64,000 nucleotides of DNA from Ostreococcus lucimarinus (Eukaryota): assembly GCA_000092065.1 (NCBI GenBank), contig CP000597.1, one strand, 5' to 3'. The notes beneath the pieces are model-generated. The model worked only from the letters and a program-made list of their open reading frames with translations. It was not told where the DNA came from and did no database searches. Below are positions 9,072 through 45,900 of this stretch, piece by piece (position 1 is the stretch's first letter; each line of letters opens with the position of its first letter). The position numbers and the translations under genes were made by a program.

Positions 9072-11618
9072 ATGTCGCCGCCCGACGCGCGCGCGGGCGC
9101 GCGCCTGCGCGTCGCCACCATGTTCACCGGCGCCGGCGCGATCGACTACGGGTGCGTCGCGCGCGACGCGCGACGGCGCGACGGCGCGGGAAACGCGCGA
9201 AACGCAAAACCGAACGCCGAACGAACGCGAACGACGACGACGACGGATTCGACGCGCGACGACGACGACGACGACGCGCGACGACGCGAGATCGGGACGA
9301 CAAGGGGAGGATGGCGCGCGAAGACGCGAAGGCGCGCGCGACGGGAGCCCCGGGAGGACGAACGCGCGACTGACGAGACGCGAATTCGGGACGCGCGCGC
9401 GACCAGGCTGACGCGGGCGGGGCACGAGGTGACGCTGCAGTGCGAACGCGACGAGCGCGCGCGGGCGGTGCTGGACGCGCGATTTCAGGGCGTGCGACGG
9501 GCGAGGGAAGCGAGCGAGATCGAGGCGCTGCCGAGGGACGTGGACGTGCTGGTGTGCGGATTGATGACGAGGGAGTACGAGGGGTCGTGGCGAGAGTCGT
9601 GGACGAGAGACGGCGCGGCGGGGGCGCTGAAACACGCGCTGAGGCTGGGGGCGAGCGCGCGCGTGCCGTGGTTGGTGATCGAAGCGAGAGGGAAGATATT
9701 AGATCGTGGAGTCGATGGGAGCGAGGCGCCGTTGATTCATGAGTTTGTGAGCGAGCTGGAGCGAGCGGGGTACGCGTGGGCGCATCGCACGGTGGCGGCG
9801 GCGGCGTTCGGGGTGCCGGATGTCGCCGCGCGGGTGTTGCTCGTCGCCAGTAGATGCGGGGATCCGAGAGATGTGTTATTGACAGAAGACGCGGGGGCGT
9901 TGAAAGTCGATGCGAGGGATCCCGCGGATGAGCACACGTTTGTGTTTAATCGGCACCCCGAACGAGGGTTGTGCGCGTACGCCGACGTGTGCGAAGGATT
10001 TCATCCCGAGCCTGAGGCGTGCATGCTCACCGCCGCGGGTGGTTTGATGCCGCTCACCGTGCATGACGCTGAAAGATTGCAAGGATTGCCTCCGGGATGG
10101 ACGATGACGACGAGACCGAGCGTTCAAGGAAGTCAAGGGGAGGAGCTCACGGCGCGTTGGGACGCTTTGGCGAAGACGTACGGATGCGTCCCAAGTTCAT
10201 ATTGGCTGGGAACTCGGTTAGCGGACCCGTATGCTTTGAAATTTTCTGCCGATGCGGTTCCATTTAGAGAGTCTGTGCCGCACGCTTGGCCGGGGGCGGC
10301 GTACAACGTTGGACACGGGCGTGCGAGCGCCTTGTGCTCGCCGTTTGTCCGTGAAATCACGGAGTTGCCGTGTCTCGGCACGTTTATTTCCACGTCCTTT
10401 TTCGAAGGCGGTCCGCTGGTGCCGAAAGAGACCGCCGTGGCGTGCGCGCGCGTGCTTAGAGAGTCTGGCTGGGAGGTCCCTCCCCAGCTAGAGGCTTTGG
10501 AAAACGGCGAGGGAGAGATCGCCGTCGTCGAGCCGCGGGTGAAGAACGAACAGGCGCCTGCGGTCGAGCCACTGACGATAGCGACTCCGGCGGCACGGGC
10601 GCAGACCTCTCGCTACGATGAGTTTGTTTCAGCGCCACCGGCTTTGGTCGAACGCACGTTGCCTTTGATAAAGACGAAGAGCGGACATTTAATCGTCGAC
10701 CAAGACGAGGTGAAACGTTCGTCCAATTTTCCCATCGACATCGAGGCGAAGCGGTACAAGAGAAGCATCACGCCATCGTCGGCGGATATCGAGCCTGGAT
10801 CGCCAGGATCAACTCCGGGAACCATGACGTTCATCGCCGGCGTCGGTTTAGCTGCGCCAAGACGAAACCAGCTCGTTTGGGCCAAGCTCCCAGGTCATCC
10901 ATTTTGGCCGGGATTGCGAGCGGATTTGGACAAGGACTTCATCCCAGCGGATGCTCTCGCGATGGCGAGAGAAAACGAAGTACTCGTCGTGTTCTTTGGA
11001 GAAAATTCATTCGGTTGGCTGCGGGCGGAGCATTGCTTAGATTTTACCGAGCACTACGCATCGAAGAGTCGGGATCCGGCGAGGAACAAGGCGCGCTTCC
11101 AAGCGGCGGTGAAGCAAGCGAACGAGGAGCTGCAAATACGAGAGACGTTGCACGAGCGCGATAGATTACGTAAAATGGCGACGCAAAGTACTGCGCATAA
11201 GTTCCGTTCGCGCGGTGGCTCACCCATGCCCGAATTGAAGGGTTGTACGTGCAAGTCGTGCACGAGCATCTCCGCCGACGGTTCGGAATCGCCCAAGTGC
11301 ATACGTGTAGAAGCCGCCGAGAAGGCTAGTCGAGGTCACACAGGCGCCAAGCTTACGATTCAAGGTAGAACTATCATCGGTAAGCAAATTTTGGTGTTTT
11401 GGCCTCTCGACCGAGCGTCATATCCGGGTAAAATAGTCGATTACGATCCCGTCGAGCTTAGACATTGCGTCGAGTATGCCGAAGACGGCGTTAAAGAATT
11501 CTTGTCGCTGTGGAAGGAAGATGTAACATTACCGCCGGGTGAAAGACTCGGCCCGACTCTTCCAGAAGCAGATGAAGCTGGTGCTGATTTGTTGCTGGGA
11601 CTCACGGCGAGAGGATAA
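9072..11618 (+). CDS. DNA (cytosine-5) methyltransferase-fold protein with degenerate catalytic motifs, fused to PWWP and Tudor-like domains
   Basis: ATG at 9072. Motif I MFTGAGAIDYG. At the motif IV position, VDVLVCGLMTREY (9552-9578) has no Pro-Cys. Motif VI is IEAR (ENV-like). Motif VIII is FGVPDVAARVLLVAS (the Q.R.R pattern is degraded). Motif IX/X is AERLQGLPPGWT. PWWP: LVWAKLPGHPFWPG at 10869-10913. C-terminal SH3-fold/Tudor-like GKQILVFWPLDRASYPGKIVDYDP at about 11379-11530. Confidence 0.8.
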   Translation: MSPPDARAGARLRVATMFTGAGAIDYGCVARDARRRDGAGNARNAKPNAERTRTTTTTDSTRDDDDDDARRREIGTTRGGWRAKTRRRARREPREDERATDETRIRDARATRLTRAGHEVTLQCERDERARAVLDARFQGVRRAREASEIEALPRDVDVLVCGLMTREYEGSWRESWTRDGAAGALKHALRLGASARVPWLVIEARGKILDRGVDGSEAPLIHEFVSELERAGYAWAHRTVAAAAFGVPDVAARVLLVASRCGDPRDVLLTEDAGALKVDARDPADEHTFVFNRHPERGLCAYADVCEGFHPEPEACMLTAAGGLMPLTVHDAERLQGLPPGWTMTTRPSVQGSQGEELTARWDALAKTYGCVPSSYWLGTRLADPYALKFSADAVPFRESVPHAWPGAAYNVGHGRASALCSPFVREITELPCLGTFISTSFFEGGPLVPKETAVACARVLRESGWEVPPQLEALENGEGEIAVVEPRVKNEQAPAVEPLTIATPAARAQTSRYDEFVSAPPALVERTLPLIKTKSGHLIVDQDEVKRSSNFPIDIEAKRYKRSITPSSADIEPGSPGSTPGTMTFIAGVGLAAPRRNQLVWAKLPGHPFWPGLRADLDKDFIPADALAMARENEVLVVFFGENSFGWLRAEHCLDFTEHYASKSRDPARNKARFQAAVKQANEELQIRETLHERDRLRKMATQSTAHKFRSRGGSPMPELKGCTCKSCTSISADGSESPKCIRVEAAEKASRGHTGAKLTIQGRTIIGKQILVFWPLDRASYPGKIVDYDPVELRHCVEYAEDGVKEFLSLWKEDVTLPPGERLGPTLPEADEAGADLLLGLTARG

Positions 11619-11702: not shown

Positions 11703-13058
11703 CTAAGCTGACGCGGATTCGAAGGTATCGTATATCGAGTCGCTCGATTCGACGTGCTTGAGCGTTTCGTTTACTGTTGTGAAGTGCTCGATTTCGTCGC
11801 TCTGATCGAACGCGGCTGCGCGTTTGACGGAGCTCTCGCTCAATTCAAATGTGTCCAATCGAGAAAGAAACGACGGTGACAAAGAGGTATCGTTCGTCGA
11901 TGGCGACACGATATCATCGGAGACGTGATTCAAGTACGATCGCGTCGCCTTCTGTACGTCCGCTGTGGCTCGCGTCACGCGATCCATGGCATCTATCATC
12001 ACTTTGGCCATCGCGCGACCCTCCTCCGTGGAGACGTCGACAGAGTTGAAAGCCACCATGTTCTCGGGCCTGAGAATCGATGCATTCATAATTTCAGCCA
12101 TATTCTTGCGCATGTCAATAAGCTCGTCTTCGTACTCGCGCGTCACTCGCATTCGCTCCTCGTGCTCAGCCACGAGCTGCTCGCTCAAGTCCCGAATCTT
12201 TGTCTCGTACAAGCGCGTTGACCTCGGCGATGTTGCGCCGCGAAGTCGCTCGATTTCCCTTGCCCGCTCCTCGCTAATCTCATTGATCTTCTCTAATTCC
12301 CATCGAAGTTCTGTAATAGTTTCCCAATCATCGATCGTCATCGTCGCCGGCCGCCCGTCGATCGGCTCGTTCGACTTGCGCTTCTGCTTGGTTTCTCTCG
12401 CGTTTGGCTCGCGCTTCTGCTCAATTTCACTCGCGCTCGCCAAACTCGCTCGACTCGCCTTTCTGCTCGATTTCTTCGCCGCCGTCTCCATCTCCCGTTG
12501 CGCTAGTCGCACCGCGCGCGCGCGCGTCTCCTCGCTCTGACAATACGCCACCGCCCCGGGTCCCAACTTTCTCGCAAACGAAATCGCCGTCGCCGCGCCG
12601 CTCGCCGCATTCGCTCGCACTTCGCACGTCCAATACATCACCGCCAACGCATCAAACGTCGCCTGAAACTCCCCTCGCTCGACACCATCGACCGATATCG
12701 CATTTGCCGGCACCCGCTCTCTCGCTAAAATCCCTCGCAGCGTCTGAAACGGGTGTTTCATCGCCGCGGCGCCGCCGCGCGTCGACGCGCTCGTCCCCGC
12801 TCGCGACGTCCCCGTCAACGCCTCGAACGATTCCGGCCACGCGCGCGCGGCGCACGCCAACGCTCCGACACTACGTTTTAGATCACTCCACACCAGCGCG
12901 CTCGTATCGCTCTCGCCCCCACGCGTCGCGCGCACGGCGTCGACGCTTCGCCGCGCGAACTCGAGCAGTTCAGATTTCCCAACCTCAATCCCCGTCTCCG
13001 TCGTCCGCGCGCGCGTCGACGCGCTGTTCGACGCGCCGTTCGATGCGACGTCGCGCAT
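11703..13058 (-). CDS. Hypothetical coiled-coil protein (451 aa)
   Basis: ATG at 13058. Long ORF with a heptad-like central region (ELEKINEISEERAREIERLR...EHEERMRVTREYEDELIDMRKNM). No family recognised. Confidence 0.55.
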   Translation of the reverse strand: MRDVASNGASNSASTRARTTETGIEVGKSELLEFARRSVDAVRATRGGESDTSALVWSDLKRSVGALACAARAWPESFEALTGTSRAGTSASTRGGAAAMKHPFQTLRGILARERVPANAISVDGVERGEFQATFDALAVMYWTCEVRANAASGAATAISFARKLGPGAVAYCQSEETRARAVRLAQREMETAAKKSSRKASRASLASASEIEQKREPNARETKQKRKSNEPIDGRPATMTIDDWETITELRWELEKINEISEERAREIERLRGATSPRSTRLYETKIRDLSEQLVAEHEERMRVTREYEDELIDMRKNMAEIMNASILRPENMVAFNSVDVSTEEGRAMAKVMIDAMDRVTRATADVQKATRSYLNHVSDDIVSPSTNDTSLSPSFLSRLDTFELSESSVKRAAAFDQSDEIEHFTTVNETLKHVESSDSIYDTFESASA

Positions 13059-13275: not shown

Positions 13276-16200
13276 ATGGAGTACGTCGACGCGTCAACGC
13301 TGCGAAAACTGTCGACGTCGGGTGACATCATCATCGTCGACGCGAGCTGGGCGATCGCGAACGACGTCGAGCGCGCGCGCGCGGCGCACGAGAGCGAGCG
13401 CATCCCGAACGCGACGTTTTATGATCACGACGAGGTGTGCGACCTGTCGTCGCCGCTGCCGCAGGCGTTCCCGCCGCGGGAAGCGTTCGCGCGAGGCGTC
13501 GGCGGCGGACTCGGGGCGACGAAGACGCGAGACGTGGCGATATACGCGAAAAACGGCGCGTCTTGCGCGGCGGAGGCGTGTGCGTTCGCGTTCTTGGAAT
13601 ATGGACATCGAGGACGGGTGATGGTGCTCAAGGGAGGGATGGAGGCGTGGAAGGCGGAAGGCTACGAGACGGAGGTCGGGGCGGAGACGATGCGCGAGCG
13701 GGCGACGGTGGAGTACGACGAAGACGGATCGAACGGAACGCGCGAGGGGAAGAAATCGGGATTCGTCGACGCGAAAGATTTGTTGACGAACTTGAGCACG
13801 CAGCGGTTGCAAGTGCTGGATTGCCGACAGTCGGAGGTGTTCGCGGGAGGGGCGAGAGACGCGGCGTACGTTCGGATTCAGGATCGAGCGATTCAGTTCG
13901 AGGGCTTCCGCGAAGGGCACATTCCGGGGGCGAAGAATTTACCGTACACGCGGTTGTTCGACGTCGCGGACGAAAACTTGCGAGAAATATTCGAGGGCGC
14001 GGGGTTGGACCTGTCCATGCCCGTGGCCGTGGTCGGTTCGGGGGGCGTCGACGCGGCGCCGATGGTGGCGTCAGCGCTCACGCGCGCCGGGTGCGCCGAC
14101 GCCGTGGTGCTAAAGAACGGTATGTGTGCGTGGTGCACGGCGCAAGGGAGCTCGTATCCGATGTCCATCGCTAGCACTTCTCCGCACGCTTCGCACAACG
14201 AAAAGCGCCTGATCGTTTGGGCGGTGACTCGATCGCGCGGCACCGCGCTCGAACGCTCGTTCTCTATGCACTCCGAGGCGATGGTCATGCACGAGTTACT
14301 CACGGAGCCGTGCTTGAAGGAGAATAATCCGGAAAATTACGCCAAGATTGTCAGTGGACAATCTGAACATCATGTCGCGAGCAGTGGATGCAGCTATGCG
14401 ACGATGTTAGAGGTGATGACGGCGGATTACTCCGCGCAAGGACGTCCATTCTTCTTCTCCAAAGAGCTGTCGTGTTACTTTGACTTGAAGCAAATGAAGT
14501 CGAGCTGGTTAAAACGGTTCACGCACGTGGTGTTGATTCGACAACCGACGGAAACGATAGAGTCATTTTATCGCGTCTCCATTGAACACAAGGAAGGGAG
14601 CTGCTATTATGATCCATCTGAGGCTGGATTTGCGGAAGCTTTTGGTATCGTAAACGCGTTGAAGCGTATCAATGCCAAGGTTATGGTCGTCGACGCTGAC
14701 GCGGATTTGCTGTCGCGACCAGAGGAGACGCTCCAAGAGATGTGTTCGCTGGCAAACGTGAACTTTGAGAGTTCGATGTTGTCATGGAAGCCCGCAGAGT
14801 TGTCAACGTGGATCAAATTTCGCGGTTGGCACGACGATGCGGCGAGATCGAGCGAGTTCAAAGCTGTCGACAAGGCACCGATGCAAAACGTACCGCCGGA
14901 ACTCTGCGTCGATGCGGCGAAGCAACAACCGTATTACGACGCCATAGGGTGGGAGCGCAAAGAAACTTCCAAGCGTTGGCCGTTCTTACGCCAGCTCACG
15001 AATCCGACGCATCGGTTCTCCGTCGTCGTGTGCGCATCGGATGAAGGCGCTATGGATATGTTCCCTCGTCTTGCCGCCGCGCGTCTGAGCGGCGTCAACT
15101 TGTACGAGTTCAAGCCGAGCGAAGTTGATCAGGCGATGAATAAATGCCCGTATATTTTCGACGACCCGATCGTTCTAGTGGGCGCACACGGACCCACGCT
15201 GCACATGGCCGAGGCACTGCGCGAGCGTGCGCAGAAGGACGGAACTTTGTGCATCGTACGCATAGTTCTCGTCGACGCTTCGGCGCATCGCGTTCGACCC
15301 GAAGGATTCGAGCACAGCTGGGTCCCAGAAGATTCGCTCAAGGATCAAACCAGCATGGACGAAGTTTTACAGAGTATTTTAGTCGACATCGAAACGGCAC
15401 AAAGCAAAAGTGCGAAGGAGATGGCGGATGTGAACGCGTTAGCCTCGACGACGACGTCGGCGGCGACGCACTGGCGCTCGGGTTTGGCGACGGCGTTGCA
15501 AGACGCTCGCTCCGACAAACCTTGCGTTACAGATGCGACGAGTACGTACACGATGAAAGAAGTGTACTCGCGTGCGTATCACGTCGCAGATATGCTCACC
15601 GAACGCGGTGCGCTGAACTCTCGTGTGGGTTTGTTTGTGCAAGCCTCCGCGGCGTCGGTGTGGTGCGCCATGGGTTCACTCTTGTGTGAATCTGTGTTTT
15701 GCGAAATCCCCGCGTGGTATCGCGACACCGACCTCGAACGCGTGTTGCGTTTGAACGAGTCGAAAGTCATAATAACTTCTCGTGATCTCGTGCAGTTCGT
15801 ACCCACCGCGTACAGAGACTTGGTCGTGGTCGTCGAGGACATGGAGTACGACGTCGACTTGAGCGGCGAGCTTCATCCGGCGCTGACGCGTCCTGACACT
15901 CCCGATGCCCCCGGGTTCTCCGTACTCACCAGTGGCACTACTGGTGTGAGTAAAATTCTGTGCTGTCCACAATCCGCGCTGACGGACTCGCAATCGGTCA
16001 TTGGGCCACACATGCGTGGCGACGATGTCATGGGGAGCTTTTGGGTCTATTATTACTTCTTCATTCCGCTCCTCGCTGGTCGCACGCTGAGCGTCATCCC
16101 GAACGATTTCTTCCTCAAGCCCCGAGAGTTGATTTCGTATGTGCGAAGTCAAAAAATGACCATGCTTTACCTCAGTCCGAGTATCCTGGAGAGCTGTTTG

Positions 16201-19200
16201 TTGCACTGCACGCCGCAAGAGTTCTCCGAAGGGATGCAAGACGTGCACACAATTTTATTGACCGGTGAACGCGTGCGAAGAGAGACTCGTATGCTTCTCG
16301 CCGAGCGTCTCACCCGTACGCGTTTGATTGACGTGTACAGCACGAACGAAACGGGTGATTTGGCGATATCTGATTACGGTGGAGCGTTCTTCCTGCGTGA
16401 GGGCACGCAAGCGCGCGTGTTGACGGATGACGGCAAGCCAGCTGTTCGCGGCACCGTCGGCCAGCTTCACGTTAAAAAGAGTGGTTTGCTCGTTGGCTTC
16501 TACACGGATAACGGTTACGCGAAGATCGAAAGCGAGTGGTATCCAACTGGCGATCTCGTTCGTTGGTTAGGTCGCAACAGGTTGACTTTTGAATCTCGTC
16601 AAAAGTCGGCATACGTCAAGATTCGTGGCTTCAAGGTTTCGCCGGTCATGGTACAAGACGTCATGCTCAAGATGCCAGTGATTAAACAGGCCATCGTGAG
16701 CACGATCGGACAGTCTGACATTGACCAGCAACTCGTCGCTGCTATCTCCTTCAACAACGGTGCGCGAGCGAAGGAGAGCGAATTGCGGGCACACATGGCA
16801 GCGCACGTGCCGCACTACATGATTCCGTCGACGTTTTACGACCTCGGCAACAAAGTGTCCACAGCTACCTCTGGTAAAGTGGTCAAGCTTGATGTCGATA
16901 GGCTGGACAAAATCACCGATAGTAACGAAGTGCAACTGACTACAAAGCAAAATGAGGTCGTGGAGGTGTGGCGCCAAGTGTTAGATCAACCGGAGAAGAA
17001 CTTCGCGGCGACGGAGAGCTTTTTCGACTACGGCGGAAGCTTGAAATTTGTTGAGCTTGCGGCGGCACTTTCGAAGAAATGGGGGGTGAGTTTGACGGTT
17101 CCCGAAGTCATCGCCAAGCCGACGCTGGCTGAGATGGCCCTACTTATGGAAGATTATAAAAACGCCAAGTTTGAGCCCGAGGTCGAAGTCGCAAAGTATG
17201 ACTTTTCCGAGTTCAAGCGAGCGCCAAAGAAGAATACTGCGGCGGGCAAGAAGAATATTCTCCTTACCGGCGCTACTGGTTTTCTTGGTGCGTACTTGCT
17301 TCAAGAACTCGCCGCAAGCGATGAAATTGATCAGATTTACGCTATCGTGCGCGCAAAAGACAAGTTTGCGGCGCAAAATCGCGTGCTCGATGTCTTCCGT
17401 AAGCGCGGGCTCACGTTTACCGATCAAATAACGCAAAAGACAACGTTCATGTGTGGTGACATGTCAATGCCGTTGTACGACATACCCGAAGCCACGCTCG
17501 CGCCAGTTTTGGAAGTGATTGACGTTGTCATCAGCGGTGGCGCGGAAGTCAATATGGTGAAGTCTTATTCAGCGTTAGAAAAGGTAAACGTCGGAGGAAC
17601 GTTCAACGGGCTCGAGATCGCGTCGCGCGCCGGCGCTAGACACGTTCTCATTTCCACGCAGTATCCGCTTCCGGGTGAAGTTTCAACGGGATACCGACGA
17701 AGTAAAGAGGTCGCGGAGATGCTATGCGAGCGCGCGCAGAAAGAAGTTGGCGTTGAGTCGGCCGTTTTATTGTTTGGTGACATCGGTATTTCTCGTGCCG
17801 TCGGTTCGCTCGCGCCCGACGATGACTACATCGTCATCTTCCTCCGCGCCTGCCTCGCGACAGGTTTCTTCCCACGTACCGAGTGGGCTGTTAGTATCTT
17901 GTGCGTCGATGATTGCGTGAAGATGCTCACGTCAATCTCATTATCCGGCCAAGTCGATCGTTATGCGTTTGACGGCGTCGCGCGTGAAGTAAAGGGTAAA
18001 CTGATGCCGTTTTCTCAACTTTACGAATGGCTCTCCAAGGAGTACGCGTTGCAGCTGTGCAGCTACGATGGCTGGCTCAATGCAGTTAAGGCTGGCGCCG
18101 CCGAAGGCAACACGATCCTTCAGCGCGCGCTCCTGACGATTGATTCCATGGAAGTCGAACTCAGAGCGGAGGGTGAGCACTTCAACTCGCAGGCGGCGTC
18201 AGATGCGCTCTTCTCCGTGGACGAAGCGTGGGGTAAGAACCTCGTCGGTGCGCTAATTCTCGAACTCTACAGCGAACTTCAAAATGACGACAAAGACACC
18301 ACCATCGGCTTCGCCGCGTTGGCGCAAGGCGAAGATTTGGTTCCGTTCAAGTATCGCCTCCCAGACATGACCCCGACGTCTGTCGAGGTGAAGGTCGAGT
18401 ACTGCGGCTTGTGCGGAAGTGATGATCACTTGATCGTGGGTGACTATGGTGAATATGCGGTGTGGCCGCAAGTTTGCGGACACGAAGTCGTGGGTACGGT
18501 CACCCAAGTTGGCACGGCGGTGACGACGCTAAAAGCCGGTCAACGCGTTGGCGTCGGCTGGCAGAGCTCGTCTTGCCACGATTGCGAGTGGTGCGCGCGA
18601 GGCGATGAGCAGCTGTGCTCTAGTGTCGGTTGTACATGCTGCGAAGGTAACAAAGGTGGTTTCGCCGATCGCATGCGCTTAAACGACTCGCAATTCTGCT
18701 ACAAAATCCCAGACGCGCTGTCTTCCGCGGAAGTCGCGCCGTTGCTATGCGGTGGCCAAACCGTTTGGACGCCTTTGAACGAGCAAACGAAGTCTAGCGA
18801 TCGCGTCGGCATTCTCGGCCTCGGTGGACTCGGTCACATGGCCATCAAGTTCGCCAAGGCGCTCGGTCGAGAAGTCACCGCGATTTCGTCTTCGGCGTCG
18901 AAGCGCGCCGACGCCCTGTCGCACGGCGCGTCGCGCTTTTTGGTGCACACCAACCAAGAAGAGATGGATGCCGCCGCCTCATCGCTCGACTTCATCCTAG
19001 TCACCATCGCCACGAATAAAGAGGTGGACTTCGCGAAGTTTTTCCCCTTGTTACGCCCGCGTGGGACGATTTGTTTCGTCGGCATGTGCCCTCCCATCCA
19101 AGCCGACGTCTTCACTCTCGGCTTCACCATGAACAACATCACAACGAGTAACACCGGGGGCAAAAAGGACATGGTTCAAATGCTCGAATTCTGCGCCCGA

Positions 19201-19374
19201 CACAAGATCGGCGCCTCCGTCGCCGTGAGTCCGCTCAGCGAGATCAACACCGCCATCACGGCTTTGCGCACGGGCGAATCCCACTTCCGACACGTCCTCG
19301 TCAACGACGTCTCGAGCGGTAGTCAACACCGTCGCATGGCCAGCGCCTTCGGCAGCGGCTTCCCTTCCCGTTAA
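13276..19374 (+). CDS. Multidomain megasynthase: rhodanese x2 - sulfotransferase-like - adenylation - carrier - thioester reductase - Zn alcohol dehydrogenase
   Basis: ATG at 13276 and a single 2,032-codon ORF. Rhodanese pair spans about 13276-14150. Sulfotransferase-like PAPS motifs: VTRSRGTAL (about 14220) and VVLIRQPTETIESFYR (about 14527-14575). A-domain cores: TSGTTGVSK (15928-15954), YSTNETGD, YPTGDL, KIRGFKV, SGKVVKLD. Carrier FFDYGGSLKF with Ser codon at 17038-17040. R domain LLTGATGFLGAYL (about 17260) and YRRSK (about 17691). ADH motifs GLCGSDDH (about 18405), CGHEVVG, GLGGLGH (about 18817). Confidence 0.9.
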   Translation: MEYVDASTLRKLSTSGDIIIVDASWAIANDVERARAAHESERIPNATFYDHDEVCDLSSPLPQAFPPREAFARGVGGGLGATKTRDVAIYAKNGASCAAEACAFAFLEYGHRGRVMVLKGGMEAWKAEGYETEVGAETMRERATVEYDEDGSNGTREGKKSGFVDAKDLLTNLSTQRLQVLDCRQSEVFAGGARDAAYVRIQDRAIQFEGFREGHIPGAKNLPYTRLFDVADENLREIFEGAGLDLSMPVAVVGSGGVDAAPMVASALTRAGCADAVVLKNGMCAWCTAQGSSYPMSIASTSPHASHNEKRLIVWAVTRSRGTALERSFSMHSEAMVMHELLTEPCLKENNPENYAKIVSGQSEHHVASSGCSYATMLEVMTADYSAQGRPFFFSKELSCYFDLKQMKSSWLKRFTHVVLIRQPTETIESFYRVSIEHKEGSCYYDPSEAGFAEAFGIVNALKRINAKVMVVDADADLLSRPEETLQEMCSLANVNFESSMLSWKPAELSTWIKFRGWHDDAARSSEFKAVDKAPMQNVPPELCVDAAKQQPYYDAIGWERKETSKRWPFLRQLTNPTHRFSVVVCASDEGAMDMFPRLAAARLSGVNLYEFKPSEVDQAMNKCPYIFDDPIVLVGAHGPTLHMAEALRERAQKDGTLCIVRIVLVDASAHRVRPEGFEHSWVPEDSLKDQTSMDEVLQSILVDIETAQSKSAKEMADVNALASTTTSAATHWRSGLATALQDARSDKPCVTDATSTYTMKEVYSRAYHVADMLTERGALNSRVGLFVQASAASVWCAMGSLLCESVFCEIPAWYRDTDLERVLRLNESKVIITSRDLVQFVPTAYRDLVVVVEDMEYDVDLSGELHPALTRPDTPDAPGFSVLTSGTTGVSKILCCPQSALTDSQSVIGPHMRGDDVMGSFWVYYYFFIPLLAGRTLSVIPNDFFLKPRELISYVRSQKMTMLYLSPSILESCLLHCTPQEFSEGMQDVHTILLTGERVRRETRMLLAERLTRTRLIDVYSTNETGDLAISDYGGAFFLREGTQARVLTDDGKPAVRGTVGQLHVKKSGLLVGFYTDNGYAKIESEWYPTGDLVRWLGRNRLTFESRQKSAYVKIRGFKVSPVMVQDVMLKMPVIKQAIVSTIGQSDIDQQLVAAISFNNGARAKESELRAHMAAHVPHYMIPSTFYDLGNKVSTATSGKVVKLDVDRLDKITDSNEVQLTTKQNEVVEVWRQVLDQPEKNFAATESFFDYGGSLKFVELAAALSKKWGVSLTVPEVIAKPTLAEMALLMEDYKNAKFEPEVEVAKYDFSEFKRAPKKNTAAGKKNILLTGATGFLGAYLLQELAASDEIDQIYAIVRAKDKFAAQNRVLDVFRKRGLTFTDQITQKTTFMCGDMSMPLYDIPEATLAPVLEVIDVVISGGAEVNMVKSYSALEKVNVGGTFNGLEIASRAGARHVLISTQYPLPGEVSTGYRRSKEVAEMLCERAQKEVGVESAVLLFGDIGISRAVGSLAPDDDYIVIFLRACLATGFFPRTEWAVSILCVDDCVKMLTSISLSGQVDRYAFDGVAREVKGKLMPFSQLYEWLSKEYALQLCSYDGWLNAVKAGAAEGNTILQRALLTIDSMEVELRAEGEHFNSQAASDALFSVDEAWGKNLVGALILELYSELQNDDKDTTIGFAALAQGEDLVPFKYRLPDMTPTSVEVKVEYCGLCGSDDHLIVGDYGEYAVWPQVCGHEVVGTVTQVGTAVTTLKAGQRVGVGWQSSSCHDCEWCARGDEQLCSSVGCTCCEGNKGGFADRMRLNDSQFCYKIPDALSSAEVAPLLCGGQTVWTPLNEQTKSSDRVGILGLGGLGHMAIKFAKALGREVTAISSSASKRADALSHGASRFLVHTNQEEMDAAASSLDFILVTIATNKEVDFAKFFPLLRPRGTICFVGMCPPIQADVFTLGFTMNNITTSNTGGKKDMVQMLEFCARHKIGASVAVSPLSEINTAITALRTGESHFRHVLVNDVSSGSQHRRMASAFGSGFPSR

Positions 19375-36950: not shown

Positions 36951-39900
36951 ATGCGGCTCGACGACGGCGACGACGCGCGACGAAGGGACGCGCGCGCGGT
37001 TCGAGCGCGCGCGACGCGGACGCCGACGCGCGCGGCGACCACGCGCGGCGATGTCGTCGACGCCGCTGCCGCCGATGATGACATCGACGACGACGCCGTC
37101 GCGCGACCGGACGCGACGCGACGACGACGACGCGACGACGACGCGACGACGACGACGCGCGATGATGAGACGACGCGCGCGCGAGAGGGCGCGAGCGGAC
37201 GCCGGCGAGCGCGGGAACGAGGGAGAGCGACGAGGCGTCGTCGACGGCTCGGGACGGCGGCGGCGGCGGCGGCGACGGCGGCGTTGGCGGCGACGGTCGA
37301 GCGCGTCGGCGTGGACGCGTCGACGGCGCTCACGAAGGGGGTGGCGAGGAATGGTTTCGTGTCGTCGAGCGGGTATAAGTACTATAAGGTGAATGTGGCG
37401 TGCGTGGAGGCGGCGCAGCCGCTGACGTTGGAGCTGACGACGAGCAACGGGGACGCGAACTTGTACGTGTCTCGATCGGCGCAGCCGACGACTTCGTCGT
37501 ACGAACAGCGGAGCGTGAACGTTGGAAATGCGTTGGATTCGGTGACGATCACGAGTCCGGTGAATGGGTACTATTACGTGAGCGTGTACGGCGCGCTGTC
37601 CAGCACGTACAAGCTTCGAGCGCTCACGACGATGTTTACCGGGAAACATCCGTGCACGGGATTTCGAATCACCGATAGCGACGTCTCGAGCGTTGGCTCG
37701 GGATCTGGAAATCAGTTCATACTGCAAGAAGCGCTCACCGCGAGCGCGGCGGCGGGATTCACCGCGGATGTGTCCGTCGACGGCGACGTCATCCTCGGCG
37801 ACGCGTACACCGATTCGGTGACGGCGAAAGGAGAGCTCAAGCTCGGCGTGACGGACAGTACGTACTACGCCATCACGCGACAATCGCCGAGCGCACCGAG
37901 CAGCAACCCGGGCGGCGCTTTGTCGATCGTCGGCGCGAACGCGACCTATCAGGGGGGATCGGTAAAGATTCTCGGCGGAACGGGCGGTTCGGGGGCGGGC
38001 GGCGACGTCGTGATCGAGGCGGGGTCGGCGTCTGGCGGCAACGGTGGCGATTTGAAGTTACGTGGCGGCACGTCGAACTCAGGAACGGGCGGCGACGTCG
38101 TCATAGATGCCGGAGATAGCACGACACAAGCATCTTCGTACGAGGGCATCATTCACATAGGTCCAACTTCTGCGTCGTTTGTGCGCGTCGGCGAGAGTTC
38201 AAATAAGCAAGTTCAAACCGATATTTTCGGCGACTTGACGGTGCACGGAAATCTCTTGACAACGAATGATGTGGTGTACGCGAACAGCTACACGAGTTAC
38301 GTGCAGGTTTCAACCTCTCAAGACGGCATGTTTCATCAAGAAGTGCGCGCGCCAAAGATTACAGGTCTGGACGCGGAGGACATCACGGGCACTCCAACGA
38401 GCACGTTGACTTTAGACGCTGGCATGCGAGGGAGTCAGCAACACGTCGTGATCGCTCCGAGCGAGGCAACGGCGGTTTACATAGGTAGCAGCACATCCAC
38501 GATTCCGGTCTCGATAAGGCAAGGCGCGAACGCAGGAGACGTGCGAGTGCACGCTGATGGCAGCGGCGCGCTGTCCGTGACTTCGGCCGCAGGGCAGGAC
38601 CTGACGCTCGCGTCCGGCGACGACGTGGTGGTGACCACCGCGGCGAGTAAGACGCTCGCGCTGAAGCAGGACTCGACGAGCATTTTGAGCTGGGACGCGG
38701 CCGGCGCTGTGACTGTGAACTCCGTGAGCGGGCAGGACCTGACGCTGAGCACGGGCGGTAGCGCGGCCGTGACTGTGGACTCGACCGGGCAGGTGGGCAT
38801 CGGGACGACGACGCCGGGGAAGACGCTGGACGTCACCGGGACGGCGCGCGTGAGTGGCGCGACGACGCTGAGTAGCACGCTTGACGTGACTGGCGCTACG
38901 ACGCTCGCATCCGTGGGCGTGACCGGTGCGGCCACCGTCGGCGGGACTTTAGGTGTGACTGGCGCTACGACGCTCGCATCCGTGGGCGTGACCGGCGCGG
39001 CCACCGTCGGCGGGACTTTAGGTGTGACTGGCGCTACGACGCTCGCATCCGTGGGCGTGACCGGCGCGGCCACCGTCGGCACGACGCTCGGCGTGACTGG
39101 CGCTACGACGCTCACCGGCGACGTGACGATGAGCAACGACTTGACCGTGAGCGGTGCGCTTACTGTGACATCTGATGCCGCTGTGAGTTTGACCTCTGCA
39201 AGTGGTTCGGACGTGAGCTTGACGAGCGCCGGTACGGGTGGCATCGTGTTGACGTCGACGGACGACATCACGCTCGATGCTGCCGATGATGTGACGATCG
39301 ATGCCGCCGGTGCTTTGTCTTTGGAGCAGGGCGGGACGAGTATTTTGAGCTGGACCGACACCGGCGCTGTGACTTTGAACTCCTTAGGCGGGCAGACCCT
39401 GAGCGTGTCGAGCCTCAGCTCGGCCGGGAACGCGGGCGCCGTGAGCGTGTCCGGCGGCACGACGACTGGGACGTCCTCGAACACCGGCGGCGACTTGACG
39501 CTGCAATCTGGCGGCGCGCCCGCTGGCAGCGTGAACGGTGACGTTCTGGTGGACTCGGCCACTGGTCTAGGCACCGCCGGCTCGATCACGCTTCGCCAGG
39601 GGGTGGGCGGTGAGCGTGTTTCTGTGGACGCGAACGGCGCCGTGAGTCTGGACACGCACTCCGGGCAGGACCTGACGCTGAGCACGGGCGGTAGCGCGGC
39701 CGTGACTGTGGACTCGACCGGGCAGGTGGGCATCGGGACGACGACGCCGGGGAAGACGCTGGACGTCACCGGGACGGCGCGCGTGAGTGGCGCGACGACG
39801 CTGAGTAGCACGCTTGGCGTGACTGGCGCTACGACGCTCGCATCCGTGGGCGTGACCGGTGCGGCCACCGTCGGCGGGACTTTAGGTGTGACTGGCGCTA

Positions 39901-42900
39901 CGACGCTCGCATCCGTGGGCGTGACCGGCGCGGCCACCGTCGGCACGACGCTCGGCGTGACTGGCGCTACGACGCTCACCGGCGACGTGACGATGAGCAA
40001 CGACTTGACCGTGAGCGGTGCGCTTACTGTGACATCTGATGCCGCTGTGAGTTTGACCTCTGCAAGTGGTTCGGACGTGAGCTTGACGAGCGCCGGTACG
40101 GGTGGCATCGTGTTGACGTCGACGGACGACATCACGCTCGATGCTGCCGATGATGTGACGATCGATGCCGCCGGTGCTTTGTCTTTGGAGCAGGGCGGGA
40201 CGAGTATTTTGAGCTGGACCGACACCGGCGCTGTGACTTTGAACTCCTTAGGCGGGCAGACCCTGAGCGTGTCGAGCCTCAGCTCGGCCGGGAACGCGGG
40301 CGCCGTGAGCGTGTCCGGCGGCACGACGACTGGGACGTCCTCGAACACCGGCGGCGACTTGACGCTGCAATCTGGCGGCGCGCCCGCTGGCAGCGTGAAC
40401 GGTGACGTTCTGGTGGACTCGGCCACTGGTCTAGGCACCGCCGGCTCGATCACGCTTCGCCAGGGGGTGGGCGGTGAGCGTGTTTCTGTGGACGCGAACG
40501 GCGCCGTGAGTCTGGACACGCACTCCGGGCAGGACCTGACGCTGAGCACGGGCGGTAGCGCGGCCGTGACTGTGGACTCGACCGGGCAGGTGGGCATCGG
40601 GACGACGACGCCGGGGAAGACGCTGGACGTCACCGGGACGGCGCGCGTGAGTGGCGCGACGACGCTGAGTAGCACGCTTGGCGTGACTGGCGCTACGACG
40701 CTCGCATCCGTGGGCGTGACCGGTGCGGCCACCGTCGGCGGGACTTTAGGTGTGACTGGCGCTACGACGCTCGGCGGGACTTTAGGTGTGACTGGCGCTA
40801 CGACGCTCGCATCCGTGGGCGTGACCGGCGCGGCCACCGTCGGCACGACGCTTGGCGTGACTGGCGCTACGACGCTCGGCGGGACTTTAGGTGTGACTGG
40901 CGCTACGACGCTCGCATCCGTGGGCGTGACCGGCGCGGCCACCGTCGGCACGACGCTCGGCGTGACTGGCGCTACGACGCTCGCATCTGTGGGCGTGACC
41001 GGTGCGGCCACCGTCGGCGGGACTTTAGGTGTGACTGGCGCTACGACGCTCACCGGCGACGTGACGATGAGCAACGACTTGACCGTGAGCGGTGCGCTTA
41101 CTGTGACATCTGATGCCGCTGTGAGTTTGACCTCTGCAAGTGGTTCGGACGTGAGCTTGACGAGCGCCGGTACGGGTGGCATCGTGTTGACGTCGACGGA
41201 CGACATCACGCTCGATGCTGCCGATGATGTGACGATCGATGCCGCCGGTGCTTTGTCTTTGGAGCAGGGCGGGACGAGTATTTTGAGCTGGACCGACACC
41301 GGCGCTGTGACTTTGAACTCCTTAGGCGGGCAGACCCTGAGCGTGTCGAGCCTCAGCTCGGCCGGGAACGCGGGCGCCGTGAGCGTGTCCGGCGGCACGA
41401 CGACTGGGACGTCCTCGAACACCGGCGGCGACTTGACGCTGCAATCTGGCGGCGCGCCCGCTGGCAGCGTGAACGGTGACGTTCTGGTGGACTCGGCCAC
41501 TGGTCTAGGCACCGCCGGCTCGATCACGCTTCGCCAGGGGGTGGGCGGTGAGCGTGTTTCTGTGGACGCGAACGGCGCCGTGAGTCTGGACACGCACTCC
41601 GGGCAGGACCTGACGCTGAGCACGGGCGGTAGCGCGGCCGTGACTGTGGACTCGACCGGGCAGGTGGGCATCGGGACGACGACGCCGGGGAAGACGCTGG
41701 ACGTCACCGGGACGGCGCGCGTGAGTGGCGCGACGACGCTGAGTAGCACGCTTGGCGTGACTGGCGCTACGACGCTCGCATCCGTGGGCGTGACCGGTGC
41801 GGCCACCGTCGGCGGGACTTTAGGTGTGACTGGCGCTACGACGCTCGGCGGGACTTTAGGTGTGACTGGCGCTACGACGCTCGCATCCGTGGGCGTGACC
41901 GGTGCGGCCACCGTCGGCGGGACTTTAGGTGTGACTGGCGCTACGACGCTCGGCACGACGCTCGGCGTGACTGGCGCTACGACGCTCGCATCCGTGGGCG
42001 TGACCGGCGCGGCCACCGTCGGCACGACGCTCGGCGTGACTGGCGCTACGACGCTCACCGGCGACGTGACGATGAGCAACGACTTGACCGTGAGCGGTGC
42101 GCTTACTGTGACATCTGATGCCGCTGTGAGTTTGACCTCTGCAAGTGGTTCGGACGTGAGCTTGACGAGCGCCGGTACGGGTGGCATCGTGTTGACGTCG
42201 ACGGACGACATCACGCTCGATGCTGCCGATGATGTGACGATCGATGCCGCCGGTGCTTTGTCTTTGGAGCAGGGCGGGACGAGTATTTTGAGCTGGACCG
42301 ACACCGGCGCTGTGACTTTGAACTCCTTAGGCGGGCAGACCCTGAGCGTGTCGAGCCTCAGCTCGGCCGGGAACGCGGGCGCCGTGAGCGTGTCCGGCGG
42401 CACGACGACTGGGACGTCCTCGAACACCGGCGGCGACTTGACGCTGCAATCTGGCGGCGCGCCCGCTGGCAGCGTGAACGGTGACGTTCTGGTGGACTCG
42501 GCCACTGGTCTAGGCACCGCCGGCTCGATCACGCTTCGCCAGGGGGTGGGCGGTGAGCGTGTTTCTGTGGACGCGAACGGCGCCGTGAGTCTGGACACGC
42601 ACTCCGGGCAGGACCTGACGCTGAGCACGGGCGGTAGCGCGGCCGTGACTGTGGACTCGACCGGGCAGGTGGGCATCGGGACGACGACGCCGGGGAAGAC
42701 GCTGGACGTCACCGGGACGGCGCGCGTGAGTGGCGCGACGACGCTGAGTAGCACGCTTGGCGTGACTGGCGCTACGACGCTCGGCGGGACTTTAGGTGTG
42801 ACTGGCGCTACGACGCTCGCATCCGTGGGCGTGACCGGCGCGGCCACCGTCGGCACGACGCTCGGCGTGACTGGCGCTACGACGCTCGCATCCGTGGGCG

Positions 42901-45900
42901 TGACCGGCGCGGCCACCGTCGGCACGACGCTCGGCGTGACTGGCGCTACGACGCTCACCGGCGACGTGACGATGAGCAACGACTTGACCGTGAGCGGTGC
43001 GCTTACTGTGACATCTGATGCCGCTGTGAGTTTGACCTCTGCAAGTGGTTCGGACGTGAGCTTGACGAGCGCCGGTACGGGTGGCATCGTGTTGACGTCG
43101 ACGGACGACATCACGCTCGATGCTGCCGATGATGTGACGATCGATGCCGCCGGTGCTTTGTCTTTGGAGCAGGGCGGGACGAGTATTTTGAGCTGGACCG
43201 ACACCGGCGCTGTGACTTTGAACTCCTTAGGCGGGCAGACCCTGAGCGTGTCGAGCCTCAGCTCGGCCGGGAACGCGGGCGCCGTGAGCGTGTCCGGCGG
43301 CACGACGACTGGGACGTCCTCGAACACCGGCGGCGACTTGACGCTGCAATCTGGCGGCGCGCCCGCTGGCAGCGTGAACGGTGACGTTCTGGTGGACTCG
43401 GCCACTGGTCTAGGCACCGCCGGCTCGATCACGCTTCGCCAGGGGGTGGGCGGTGAGCGTGTTTCTGTGGACGCGAACGGCGCCGTGAGTCTGGACACGC
43501 ACTCCGGGCAGGACCTGACGCTGAGCACGGGCGGTAGCGCGGCCGTGACTGTGGACTCGACCGGGCAGGTGGGCATCGGGACGACGACGCCGGGGAAGAC
43601 GCTGGACGTCACCGGGACGGCGCGCGTGAGTGGCGCGACGACGCTGAGTAGCACGCTTGGCGTGACTGGCGCTACGACGCTCGCATCCGTGGGCGTGACC
43701 GGTGCGGCCACCGTCGGCGGGACTTTAGGTGTGACTGGCGCTACGACGCTCGCATCCGTGGGCGTGACCGGCGCGGCCACCGTCGGCACGACGCTCGGCG
43801 TGACTGGCGCTACGACGCTCGCATCCGTGGGCGTGACCGGCGCGGCCACCGTCGGCACGACGCTTGGCGTGACTGGCGCTACGACGCTCGGCGGGACTTT
43901 AGGTGTGACTGGCGCTACGACGCTCGCATCCGTGGGCGTGACCGGCGCGGCCACCGTCGGCACGACGCTCGGCGTGACTGGCGCTACGACGCTCGCATCT
44001 GTGGGCGTGACCGGTGCGGCCACCGTCGGCGGGACTTTAGGTGTGACTGGCGCTACGACGCTCACCGGCGACGTGACGATGAGCAACGACTTGACCGTGA
44101 GCGGTGCGCTTACTGTGACATCTGATGCCGCTGTGAGTTTGACCTCTGCAAGTGGTTCGGACGTGAGCTTGACGAGCGCCGGTACGGGTGGCATCGTGTT
44201 GACGTCGACGGACGACATCACGCTCGATGCTGCCGATGATGTGACGATCGATGCCGCCGGTGCTTTGTCTTTGGAGCAGGGCGGGACGAGTATTTTGAGC
44301 TGGACCGACACCGGCGCTGTGACTTTGAACTCCTTAGGCGGGCAGACCCTGAGCGTGTCGAGCCTCAGCTCGGCCGGGAACGCGGGCGCCGTGAGCGTGT
44401 CCGGCGGCACGACGACTGGGACGTCCTCGAACACCGGCGGCGACTTGACGCTGCAATCTGGCGGCGCGCCCGCTGGCAGCGTGAACGGTGACGTTCTGGT
44501 GGACTCGGCCACTGGTCTAGGCACCGCCGGCTCGATCACGCTTCGCCAGGGGGTGGGCGGTGAGCGTGTTTCTGTGGACGCGAACGGCGCCGTGAGTCTG
44601 GACACGCACTCCGGGCAGGACCTGACGCTGAGCACGGGCGGTAGCGCGGCCGTGACTGTGGACTCGACCGGGCAGGTGGGCATCGGGACGACGACGCCGG
44701 GGAAGACGCTGGACGTCACCGGGACGGCGCGCGTGAGTGGCGCGACGACGCTGAGTAGCACGCTTGACGTGACTGGCGTTACGACGCTCGCATCCGTGGG
44801 CGTGACCGGTGCGGCCACCGTCGGCACGACGCTCGGCGTGACTGGCGCTACGACGCTCGCATCCGTGGGCGTGACCGGTGCGGCCACCGTCGGCGGGACT
44901 TTAGGTGTGACTGGCGCTACGACGCTCGGCACGACGCTCGGCGTGACTGGCGCTACGACGCTCGCATCCGTGGGCGTGACCGGCGCGGCCACCGTCGGCA
45001 CGACGCTCGGCGTGACTGGCGCTACGACGCTCACCGGCGACGTGAGCGTCGGGACTTCCTCGGCTTTGAGTTTTGGTTCTGCAACCCGGCAGATGATCAA
45101 CTTATATGGAACAAACAACGCCATCGGCGTGCAATCGTCCACGATGTATTTTCGTAGTGCTTATAACTTTGCCTTTTTTGAAGGCGGCGTGTACACCAAC
45201 ACAGAGCTCGATCCGGGTTCGGGTGGCACTTTGCGCATGATGATTCAGAAAACCACGGGCAACGTCGGTATCGGGACGGCGAGTCCAGATTATGAACTCG
45301 ACGTGGTAGGCGATATCAACTTTTCTGGGAATCTCTATCAGGGTGGTTCGCTGTTTGCCTCCCCCTGGACGGAGAGCAGCGGTAACGTGTATCGCAGTAG
45401 CGGTAACGTCGGCATCGGGCTGACGAATCCGACCTACAATCTGCACGTTGCTGGAACGGGGCGCGTTAGTACGACGCTATCGGTGGGTCAAGATTTAACC
45501 ATCGACACGGCTGGCGACTTGAACTTTGCGGCGACGCATCGTCAGATGATCAACCTCCGCGTCGGCGCCGAGGGTTTCGGGATCGGGACGCAGATGGACA
45601 CGACGTACTTTCGCTCTCCGGGCCACTTTGCGTTCTACGAAGACGGAACGCACAGCACCACTGACTTGGACGCGAACGGTGGCACCGCGCGTCTGGTGAT
45701 CAGGAGCGGCGGGAAGGTGGGCATCGGGCGGACGAATCCGAGCTATGATCTCGACGTGGTAGGCGATATCAACTTTTCTGGGAATCTCTATCAGGGCGGT
45801 TCTCTGTTCCCGTCCCCCTCCCCCTGGACGGAGAGCGGCAGTAACGTGTATCGTAGTAGCGGTAACGTCGGCATCGGGCTGACGAATCCGAGCTACAAAC

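Follow-up and report, generated by a model that had tools for sequence, protein, structure and literature searches.

What does Ostreococcus lucimarinus make with a single protein in which two rhodanese domains, a sulfotransferase, a carboxylate reductase and an alcohol dehydrogenase follow one another? The question is raised by a stretch of 64,000 nucleotides (nt) of contig CP000597.1 (assembly GCA_000092065.1), hereafter the window, in which positions 13276-19374 of the plus strand can be translated without a stop through 2,032 codons from an ATG (strain CCE9901). A preliminary description of this open reading frame (ORF) had read it as a self-contained route from a carboxylic acid to an O-sulfated or sulfur-bearing alcohol. 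We find that the gene corresponds to a module that bacteria encode in two adjacent genes. Our favoured, still tentative, reading is that the protein turns a betaine- or sulfonium-type acid into the aldehyde and then the alcohol, and that O-sulfation with 3'-phosphoadenosine 5'-phosphosulfate (PAPS) yields a zwitterionic ester of the choline-O-sulfate type.

One gene of 2,032 residues

The ORF (13276-19374; all features of the gene lie on the plus strand) is complete and ATG-started, its 6,099 nt encode 2,032 amino acids (aa) plus a stop, and it forms one gene. Its uninterrupted frame, from which the preliminary description had started, is borne out: the translation contains no stop, and the window shows no frame break relative to any aligned homologue, whether from the Ostreococcus protein clusters, from Bathycoccus or from a further picoeukaryote (P0134). 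A TGA lies in frame 15 nt before the ATG, which rules out a 5' extension; because of this TGA, the longer N-termini of clusters P0004 and P0007 are probably ORF-calling artefacts. The RefSeq/GenBank model (XP_001422100.1 / ABP00417.1, 'predicted protein') has 408 aa and corresponds to residues 1625-2032 (window 18148-19374). It begins at an ORF-internal methionine (residue 1625) and shares the stop of the ORF, so residues 1-1,624, four fifths of the gene, are without annotation. The gene is therefore mis-annotated in the reference genome.

The domains proposed for the protein all scored above the Pfam gathering cut-offs and in the order described: two Rhodanese domains (residues 3-288, 65.9 bits), Sulfotransfer_5 (PF19798; residues 387-557, 28.1 bits vs a cut-off of 23.2), AMP-binding (744-1076, 92.1 bits), PP-binding (1227-1288, 37.7 bits), NAD_binding_4 (from residue 1330, 114 bits), ADH_N (1700-1813, 80.7 bits) and ADH_zinc_N (1851-1974, 55.2 bits). 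We call the sulfotransferase ST, the adenylation, carrier and thioester reductase domains A, T and R, the alcohol dehydrogenase ADH, and the 180-aa stretch without a Pfam domain between ST and A (about residues 558-740) X. Every motif on which these assignments had rested was located: VTRSRGTAL and VVLIRQPTETIESFYR in ST; TSGTTGVSK, YSTNETGD, YPTGDL, KIRGFKV and SGKVVKLD in A; FFDYGGSLKF in T; GATGFLG and YRRSK in R; and GLCGSDDH, CGHEVVG and GLGGLGH in ADH.

The architecture is conserved among picoalgae

The whole architecture is found in seven other protein clusters from other Ostreococcus clades at 67-78% identity, in a Bathycoccus homologue at 47% identity over the whole protein and in P0134 (2,142 aa) at 38% identity. 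Since it is conserved at these distances without frame breaks, it is not a product of chance. Two full-length transcripts of the whole architecture were found among the relatives; the transcriptome MMETSP0929 of O. mediterraneus yields a full-length product of 2,044 aa (in one of the seven clusters), and the P0134 protein is the sole gene on a 6,553-nt contig that resembles a transcript. The protein of Bathycoccus prasinos (CAL6311780.1) is annotated at 2,042 aa, and its cluster, with 632 members and a representative of 2,011 aa, has the same domains. Public metagenomes supply 220 and 632 members of clusters that hold a full-architecture protein. Catalytic residues have been lost in different domains in different lineages, namely the rhodanese cysteine, the ST of Bathycoccus and the ADH of P0134, and this pattern suggests that different lineages have trimmed the pathway in their own ways. 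The protein has ecological reach, since few eukaryotic phototrophs in the sea are as abundant as Ostreococcus and Bathycoccus.

Bacteria encode the same module next to an alcohol dehydrogenase gene

With residues 291-740 as the query, HMMER retrieved 728 relatives from 1.8 billion representatives. The bacterial ones of 1,340-1,450 aa have the order ST-X-A-T-R, without rhodanese and without ADH. They are carried by Pseudomonas sp. UBA4194, Halomonas caseinilytica and a Rhodobacter metagenome-assembled genome (MAG), and also by Pseudomonas veronii, P. gessardii and P. baltica (about 10 Pseudomonas species); NCBI labels the protein 'SDR family oxidoreductase'. The algal protein aligns with these proteins collinearly across ST, X, A, T and R at 326-518 bits and 24-29% identity, whereas the best generic nonribosomal peptide synthetase (NRPS) reaches 170 bits. 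The domain order first described from one sequence is thus present in full in Ostreococcus clades and Bathycoccus, and its ST-X-A-T-R part is collinear in bacteria.

In every intact bacterial cluster examined, the next gene after ST-X-A-T-R, directly 3' of it, encodes a separate Zn-dependent ADH of the Ahr type, and this constant adjacency argues that the two proteins work together. The logic of an A-T-R module followed by a second reductase, which had been proposed from the algal sequence, therefore recurs with the reductase in a gene of its own. The algal ADH domain matches the bacterial neighbour ADH proteins at about 300 bits, Ahr is the best NCBIfam match for both, and the algal domain is the counterpart of the separate bacterial gene. 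Fourteen close loci emerged when each bacterial species was scanned through a single genome; they fall into two cluster types (P and R), and in both types a gene for an EamA exporter accompanies ST-X-A-T-R and ADH. These three form a conserved core; the algal gene is this core fused, with the rhodanese pair in front. The bacterial clusters are new here and apparently undescribed.

Type P is found in ten Pseudomonas-group genomes and one Aestuariivirgaceae MAG (loci L002, L008-L014 and L016-L018 of Pseudomonas spp., and L007). Its genes encode, in order, an S-adenosylmethionine (SAM) methyltransferase, a 2-oxoglutarate oxygenase, a protein resembling 3-hydroxyisobutyrate dehydrogenase, an enolase-superfamily protein, a Rieske oxygenase, an adenosine 5'-phosphosulfate (APS) kinase, a LysR regulator, EamA, ST-X-A-T-R and ADH. 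The APS kinase is present in 10 of the 11 clusters (223 bits vs a curated cut-off of 163). The closest solved relative of the Rieske protein is the carnitine monooxygenase CntA (E 3e-58), followed by 3vca and 4qup, which we take to be of the stachydrine-demethylase type (the PDB names them only 'ring-hydroxylating dioxygenase' and 'monoxygenase; demethylase'), and its best NCBIfam match is GbcA. The enolase-superfamily protein matches 4e8g, 2pmq and 4h2h at about E 1e-49; we assume these to be the proline-betaine epimerase HpbD, the PDB naming them only as mandelate racemase/muconate lactonizing enzymes (MR/MLE). Its best NCBIfam match is cis-3-hydroxy-L-proline dehydratase.

Type R is found in the Rhodobacter MAG (L004/L006), in Halomonas caseinilytica (L001/L019) and on one metagenome contig (L005). 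It encodes, in order, a protein resembling serine hydroxymethyltransferase, ST-X-A-T-R, ADH, an FAD amine-oxidase-like protein, an NQO-like protein, a DUF1330 protein, a SABATH-type methyltransferase, EamA and LysR. A PDB sequence search with the FAD oxidase of the Rhodobacter-type cluster gave no match. In Halomonas, genes for a phosphopantetheinyl transferase and a LuxI/LuxR pair lie directly downstream, and the pair hints at quorum-sensing control.

The base composition of the algal gene is compatible with a foreign origin of its ST-to-ADH part. The GC content is 0.564 for the ORF against 0.62 for the window, with a minimum in the ST-to-R part (0.51-0.58); the rhodanese part stands at 0.65, and the rest of the ORF lies below its surroundings.

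Three observations concern more remote or reduced loci. Those of Pseudomonas kairouanensis and P. neuropathica (L015, L059) retain the LysR and EamA genes of type P with a short or partial ST match, and have no A-T-R or ADH match; they may be decayed or deleted clusters. The distant Sulfotransfer_5 genes of Rubrobacter and Streptomyces have an APS kinase in most of the loci fetched. An independent fusion of 690 aa (L066, 8001-10073) joins Aldedh (a LuxC-like reductase) to Sulfotransfer_5, another combination of reductase and sulfotransferase, and adjoins sulfate-activation genes of the CysD/CysNC type, a radical SAM enzyme, an aminotransferase and a major facilitator superfamily transporter.

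The adenylation pocket may point to a cationic acid

The A domain (15505-16905) is highly divergent. It has the motifs A3 (LTSGTTGVSK), A5 (YSTNETGD), A7 (YPTGD) and A8 (KIRGFK), and Lys1201 is taken as the A10 lysine from the motif SGKVVKLD and its invariance; the key residues of A3, A5, A7 and A8 and K1201 are invariant in 12 homologues. A search for homologues of the domain gave only three matches, none of them informative. It is remote from the solved A domains (best PDB E 8e-21), the best of which are NRPS A domains. The T domain (16954-17139; FFDYGGSLKF) has its presumed phosphopantetheine site at Ser1255, which aligns with the serine of GGxS with a gap of one residue, the atypical GGS being invariant in the family. 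The R domain (17254-18111; NAD_binding_4) carries TGATGFLG and Tyr1473-x3-Lys1477, which are invariant in the family alignment, and matches the thioester-reductase model TIGR01746 at 152.8 bits, below its cut-off of 213. With the core A motifs, the carrier serine and a reductase of the short-chain dehydrogenase/reductase (SDR) type that has GxxGxxG and Y-x3-K, the three domains have the sequence hallmarks expected of a working A-T-R module.

What acid would this module take? In an alignment (MAFFT) with TycA and 25 NRPS A domains, a deletion of five residues falls exactly at FDxS in the A4 region (SFWVYYYFF, residues 921-929; 16036-16062) and removes Asp235 and Ala236. The remainder of the specificity code reads Y926, Y965, L994, T996, V1020, D1028 and L1029 in the algae, and G/C, M, W, S, L, D and V at the same positions in bacteria. 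Algae and bacteria share W923, Y927, D1028 and K1201 without exception. Further aromatic residues are found in algae at code positions 239 and 278, and in bacteria at 299; the predicted pocket contains no Arg or Lys. Asp1028 (codon 16357-16359; code position 330), invariant across the family, is a candidate counter-charge for a cationic head group. We favour a cationic carboxylate because Asp235 is lost, because the pocket has an invariant Trp, Tyr and Asp and because the type P neighbours are of betaine type.

These features bear on two other classes of substrate. A fatty acid that is reduced to a fatty alcohol and sulfated to an alkyl sulfate, as a surfactant or a lipid sulfate, would suit the weak NCBIfam matches of the A domain to long-chain fatty-acid-CoA ligases (85 bits) and the membership of NAD_binding_4 in the 'male sterility' fatty acyl reductase family. 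We consider it very improbable: the NRPS amino-acid adenylation models score at least equally well and the best solved relatives are of that kind, Trp/Tyr and Asp fill the pocket, and the exporter, of a small-metabolite type, and the betaine-type neighbour enzymes speak for another substrate. The second class comprises sulfonates, with cysteate reduced to cysteinolate or sulfolactate to 2,3-dihydroxypropanesulfonate (DHPS), and with ST and rhodanese handling the sulfur group. Chemically, a carboxylate reduced by four electrons is what this route requires, and these sulfonates are generally known to be abundant in marine algae. They fit poorly all the same, since a sulfonate would find no basic residue in the predicted pocket, only an invariant Asp and aromatic side chains; moreover, the rhodanese lacks its catalytic cysteine, neither product needs an O-sulfotransferase, and the bacterial neighbours indicate quaternary-ammonium chemistry. 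We regard the sulfonate route as the least credible of those considered here. The preliminary description had named both sulfonate reactions beside a conversion of glycine betaine via choline to choline-O-sulfate; it is the last that the pocket and the bacterial neighbours support, and it is the best fit of the three.

The alcohol dehydrogenase is a relative of Ahr

The C-terminal domain (18307-19299; ADH_N and ADH_zinc_N) is a Zn-dependent aldehyde reductase of the medium-chain dehydrogenase/reductase (MDR) superfamily, of the Ahr/YahK/cinnamyl alcohol dehydrogenase (CAD) type, with GLCGSDDH, CGHEVVG, GLGGLGH and ISSSASK. Its Zn ligands are present: C1713 and H1736/E1737 for the catalytic site and four structural cysteines in 1767-1781. 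We presume the string ISSSASK to be typical of CAD-type enzymes that use NADPH. The score against the NCBIfam model of Ahr (NF047908) is 318.5 bits, below the equivalog cut-off of 470, and by this measure the domain is a family-level relative of E. coli Ahr, not an orthologue.

The sulfotransferase resembles an enzyme that uses sulfate as a leaving group

The ST domain (14200-14946) has the Sulfotransfer_5 profile and a CurM-ST-like fold. The Pfam match spans profile positions 68-222, and the bacterial homologues match the profile over its full length, at 36-42 bits. In a PDB sequence search with residues 291-740, the sole match was the ST of CurM (4gbm). An AlphaFold model built with 56 family sequences (pLDDT 90.9, pTM 0.89) gave, in a Foldseek search of the PDB, sulfotransferases as all of its 21 best matches, CurM ST being the first and TPST1/2 next. 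The domain contains a 5'-phosphosulfate-binding (PSB) loop, WAVTRSRGTALER (residues 315-327), His339-Glu340 and the 3'-phosphate motif Arg422...Ser430. R422, S430 and W504 are invariant across the 56 family members, and R319, T323, R327 and E340 nearly so. As is general for this family, the loop and R422/S430 are presumed to bind PAPS; the spacing of R422 and S430 is that of the 3'-phosphate motif of PAPS enzymes. The earlier assignment to the PAPS-type sulfotransferases is upheld by the model, the fold matches and this spacing, and by the APS kinase linked to the domain in relatives.

Segment X (14947-15495) is a three-layer alpha/beta (flavodoxin-like) domain followed by a long helix. It had been left unassigned, as about 250 aa; a reading of it as an extra catalytic module was not supported. 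X occurs in every algal and bacterial homologue and has no invariant residue, and its fold matches CheY and flavodoxin equally well. With so generic a fold match and no conserved residue, X is probably not catalytic but a structural scaffold. On the same grounds we rejected X as a thioesterase, a candidate suggested by the parallel with CurM and by a 'GAHGP' string; a pairing of ST with a catalytic thioesterase, as in CurM, was not found in the algal protein.

In CurM the sulfate serves as a leaving group and is not part of the end product. Because the nearest solved ST does so, a non-sulfated end product is a serious rival to the choline-O-sulfate type of ester. Sulfation would then only activate a hydroxyl of the carrier-bound acid or of the alcohol product, in the style of CurM/olefin synthase (OLS) or LGS1, and elimination or displacement of the sulfate would leave a substituted product, an alkene or a ring. 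The activating ST of CurM is both the only sequence match in the PDB and the best fold match, and LGS1, an enzyme of 'sulfation-assisted ring formation', is among the fold matches. With no invariant residue in X, there is on the other hand no Ser-His-Asp triad in this domain, which resembles CheY and flavodoxin alike, and the two bacterial cluster types have no follow-up enzyme in common. An EamA exporter next to the core would suit an end product that is small and polar, yet it is compatible with this alternative too. Overall we judge a leaving-group role to be unlikely, though well worth considering.

The rhodanese pair has lost its catalytic cysteine

Rhodanese domains 1 (13282-13659) and 2 (13771-14139) form a tandem like that of 3-mercaptopyruvate sulfurtransferase (3-MST) and thiosulfate sulfurtransferase (TST), in which the N-terminal domain is normally the non-catalytic half. 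The tandem matches the NCBIfam model of 3-MST at 79.7 bits over residues 3-286, below the cut-off of 250, and its best PDB matches are 3-MST (mammalian, 5wqk, E 1e-18) and bovine rhodanese. Domain 2, supported by Pfam and by the alignment to 3-MST, has the active-site loop VVGSGGVDA. Aligned to ATCGSGVTA of 5wqk, this loop has Gly254 (codon 14035-14037) in place of the catalytic cysteine of CGSGVT. A second substrate-binding residue of 3-MST, which we take to be an arginine, also appears to be lost in the 5wqk alignment. A cysteine is retained at the Gly254 column only in P0006, from one Ostreococcus clade, and in P0134; Bathycoccus has alanine. Given the glycine, the pair of O. lucimarinus is predicted to be catalytically dead and unable to form a persulfide, and can at most bind anions or regulate. 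A role as sulfur donor, implied when the domains were first described, is accordingly rejected for this species. The algal protein and 3-MST/TST are thus alike in their tandem two-domain fold and differ in the catalytic residue; the pair is not a functional rhodanese.

A possible route from a cationic acid to a sulfate ester

From the domains, motifs, conservation and bacterial synteny observed, we infer in which order the steps run, which group accepts the sulfate and which acid is used. The protein would be a fusion of the bacterial two-gene module, ST-X-A-T-R with its adjacent Ahr-type Zn-ADH, to an N-terminal tandem rhodanese. In a first step, the A domain would adenylate a small carboxylic acid with a positively charged head group (quaternary ammonium or sulfonium) and load it onto the phosphopantetheine arm of Ser1255. 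The R domain would then free the aldehyde at the expense of NADPH, and the Zn-ADH domain would turn it into an alcohol. Finally, ST would use PAPS to esterify a hydroxyl, most simply that of the new alcohol, to give a zwitterionic ester of the choline-O-sulfate type. Glycine betaine and dimethylsulfoniopropionate (DMSP) are our leading guesses for the substrate.

Besides the use of sulfate by CurM, several points weigh against this scheme. The code was assigned in an alignment across the deletion of five residues and is ambiguous for positions 235-239, and a pocket with Asp and aromatic residues could accommodate a primary amine, for example beta-alanine or gamma-aminobutyric acid, equally well. 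The neighbours in type R carry no clear betaine signal. In Bathycoccus, an alignment read by eye shows R319N, T323D, R327C, H339Y and E340K in ST, and in P0134 CGHE of the ADH has become SGGQ, with loss of the His/Glu Zn ligands. Since the domains appear to have decayed separately in different algae, the full chain of four steps is apparently not kept in every alga. O. tauri, moreover, is completely without phosphatidylcholine (PMC7407893) and so lacks the obvious use for choline, a point that leaves choline sulfate unaffected.

The lipids of O. tauri lead to a further alternative, in which the protein reduces DMSP, or a related sulfonium acid, to 3-dimethylsulfoniopropanol, the head-group alcohol of phosphatidyldimethylpropanethiol (PDPT), and sulfation is secondary or regulatory. 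PDPT is a sulfonium phospholipid that takes the place of phosphatidylcholine in Ostreococcus. O. tauri contains PDPT (PMC7407893). The head group of this lipid is formally the product of a four-electron reduction of DMSP. The A pocket resembles a cation-pi cage, and Bathycoccus keeps A-T-R-ADH beside its degenerate ST. The fungal glycine betaine reductase ATRR takes the sulfonium analogue of glycine betaine at a reduced rate, and rejects DMSP and beta-alanine betaine (bioRxiv 10.1101/559534). Against the DMSP route, neither a kinase nor a cytidylyltransferase is visibly linked, no PDPT data for Bathycoccus or Micromonas were found in the literature searched, and the bacterial clusters carry APS kinase, so that sulfation is integral there. 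Close bacterial homologues of the protein, moreover, occur in Pseudomonas and Halomonas, which we take not to be known makers of PDPT. We think this route distinctly improbable. In a broader form, the protein would be the missing enzyme for a sulfur-containing onium alcohol in the most abundant picoeukaryotes of the ocean, either the PDPT head group made from DMSP or an overlooked zwitterionic organosulfate (choline-O-sulfate or its sulfonium analogue) made by one polypeptide, acquired from bacteria as a fused operon; this is a speculative proposal, and we hold it to be improbable. If it were true, it would add a new node to the marine network of organosulfur compounds and osmolytes.

The reading that we prefer, reduction of a cationic acid followed by O-sulfation, would reveal an unrecognised route into the pool of small organosulfur compounds and osmolytes on which marine bacteria feed. 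The question can be tested directly in cultivable strains that carry the bacterial clusters, namely P. veronii DSM 11331, P. gessardii DSM 17152 and H. caseinilytica JCM 14802.

Surroundings of the gene in the window

No local gene clustering was seen around the algal gene, whose neighbours are a PWWP protein, an ORF of 450 aa and a phosphatidylinositol 4-phosphate 5-kinase (PIP5K). The 450-aa ORF (11703-13058, minus strand) lies directly 5' of the gene in divergent orientation; Pfam gives no match for it, and the protein collection contains no entry identical to it. The ORF at 9072-11615 is identical to XP_001422099.1. Further away, an ORF of 3,364 aa (36951-47045, plus strand) has as its sole Pfam match the bacterial pre-peptidase C-terminal (PPC) domain and is rich in tandem repeats of 36, 69 and 105 nt that code for units rich in Gly, Thr, Ala and Val. 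The strand opposite it holds an ORF of 2,221 aa, and the GC skew is strongly positive at 38-46 kb (+0.11 to +0.13). An ORF of 1,857 aa (47164-52740, minus strand) has four Ion_trans repeats, as in voltage-gated cation channels of the four-domain type, and lies in the stretch of lowest GC content (0.50-0.54). Over the window (1-64000), GC content is strongly heterogeneous, from 0.50 to 0.72 in windows of 2 kb.

Comparison with known systems

The literature searched yielded no characterised enzyme or pathway of this composition, in agreement with the preliminary description. The closest parallel in logic is ATRR of fungi and plant-parasitic nematodes (A-T-R1-R2), the one A-T-R-R enzyme known to be characterised, with which the algal protein would share the four-electron conversion of a carboxylate via the aldehyde to the alcohol by a dedicated second reductase in one polypeptide. 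The ATRR pocket has F201/W204/W270 and E304 and has lost Asp235 (bioRxiv 10.1101/559534). Both A domains lack Asp235, and the aromatic residues and the acidic residue of the algal pocket may sit at equivalent positions, to judge from their spacing only. They differ in the second reductase, which is of the SDR type (R2) in ATRR and a Zn-dependent MDR ADH of the Ahr/CAD type in the alga, and in the N-terminal ST, X and two rhodanese domains that the alga adds. No specific sequence relationship was detected, and the algal A domain retrieves almost nothing by sequence. Since its second reductase comes from a different superfamily, the algal protein lies outside the ATRR family; if our reading is true, it extends the logic of A-T-R plus a second reductase by a built-in sulfotransferase.

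The A-T-R proteins of the carboxylic acid reductase (CAR) and Lys2 type have the same domain order, a phosphopantetheine-dependent carrier and an SDR-type reductase with Y-x3-K. In comparison, the algal A domain is very divergent with FDxS deleted, its carrier has GGS instead of GGxS, and the aldehyde is proposed not to be the end product. CurM and the olefin synthases (ACP-ST-TE, that is, acyl carrier protein, ST and thioesterase) offer the closest solved ST by sequence and fold, and there too ST belongs to a carrier-protein assembly line and is followed by an alpha/beta domain. In the alga, however, ST stands before A-T, there is no catalytic thioesterase, and release is reductive rather than hydrolytic. 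The bacterial ST-X-A-T-R clusters share with the alga the invariant pocket residues and the type of ADH. They differ in that ADH is a separate gene, in that they have no rhodanese, in positions 239, 278 and 299 (G/C, M and W in bacteria vs Y, Y and L in algae), and in the accessory enzymes of the operons, which are not found near the algal gene. The protein, then, would act in the manner of ATRR or CAR joined to a PAPS sulfotransferase, and is not an ST-thioesterase pair of the CurM type.

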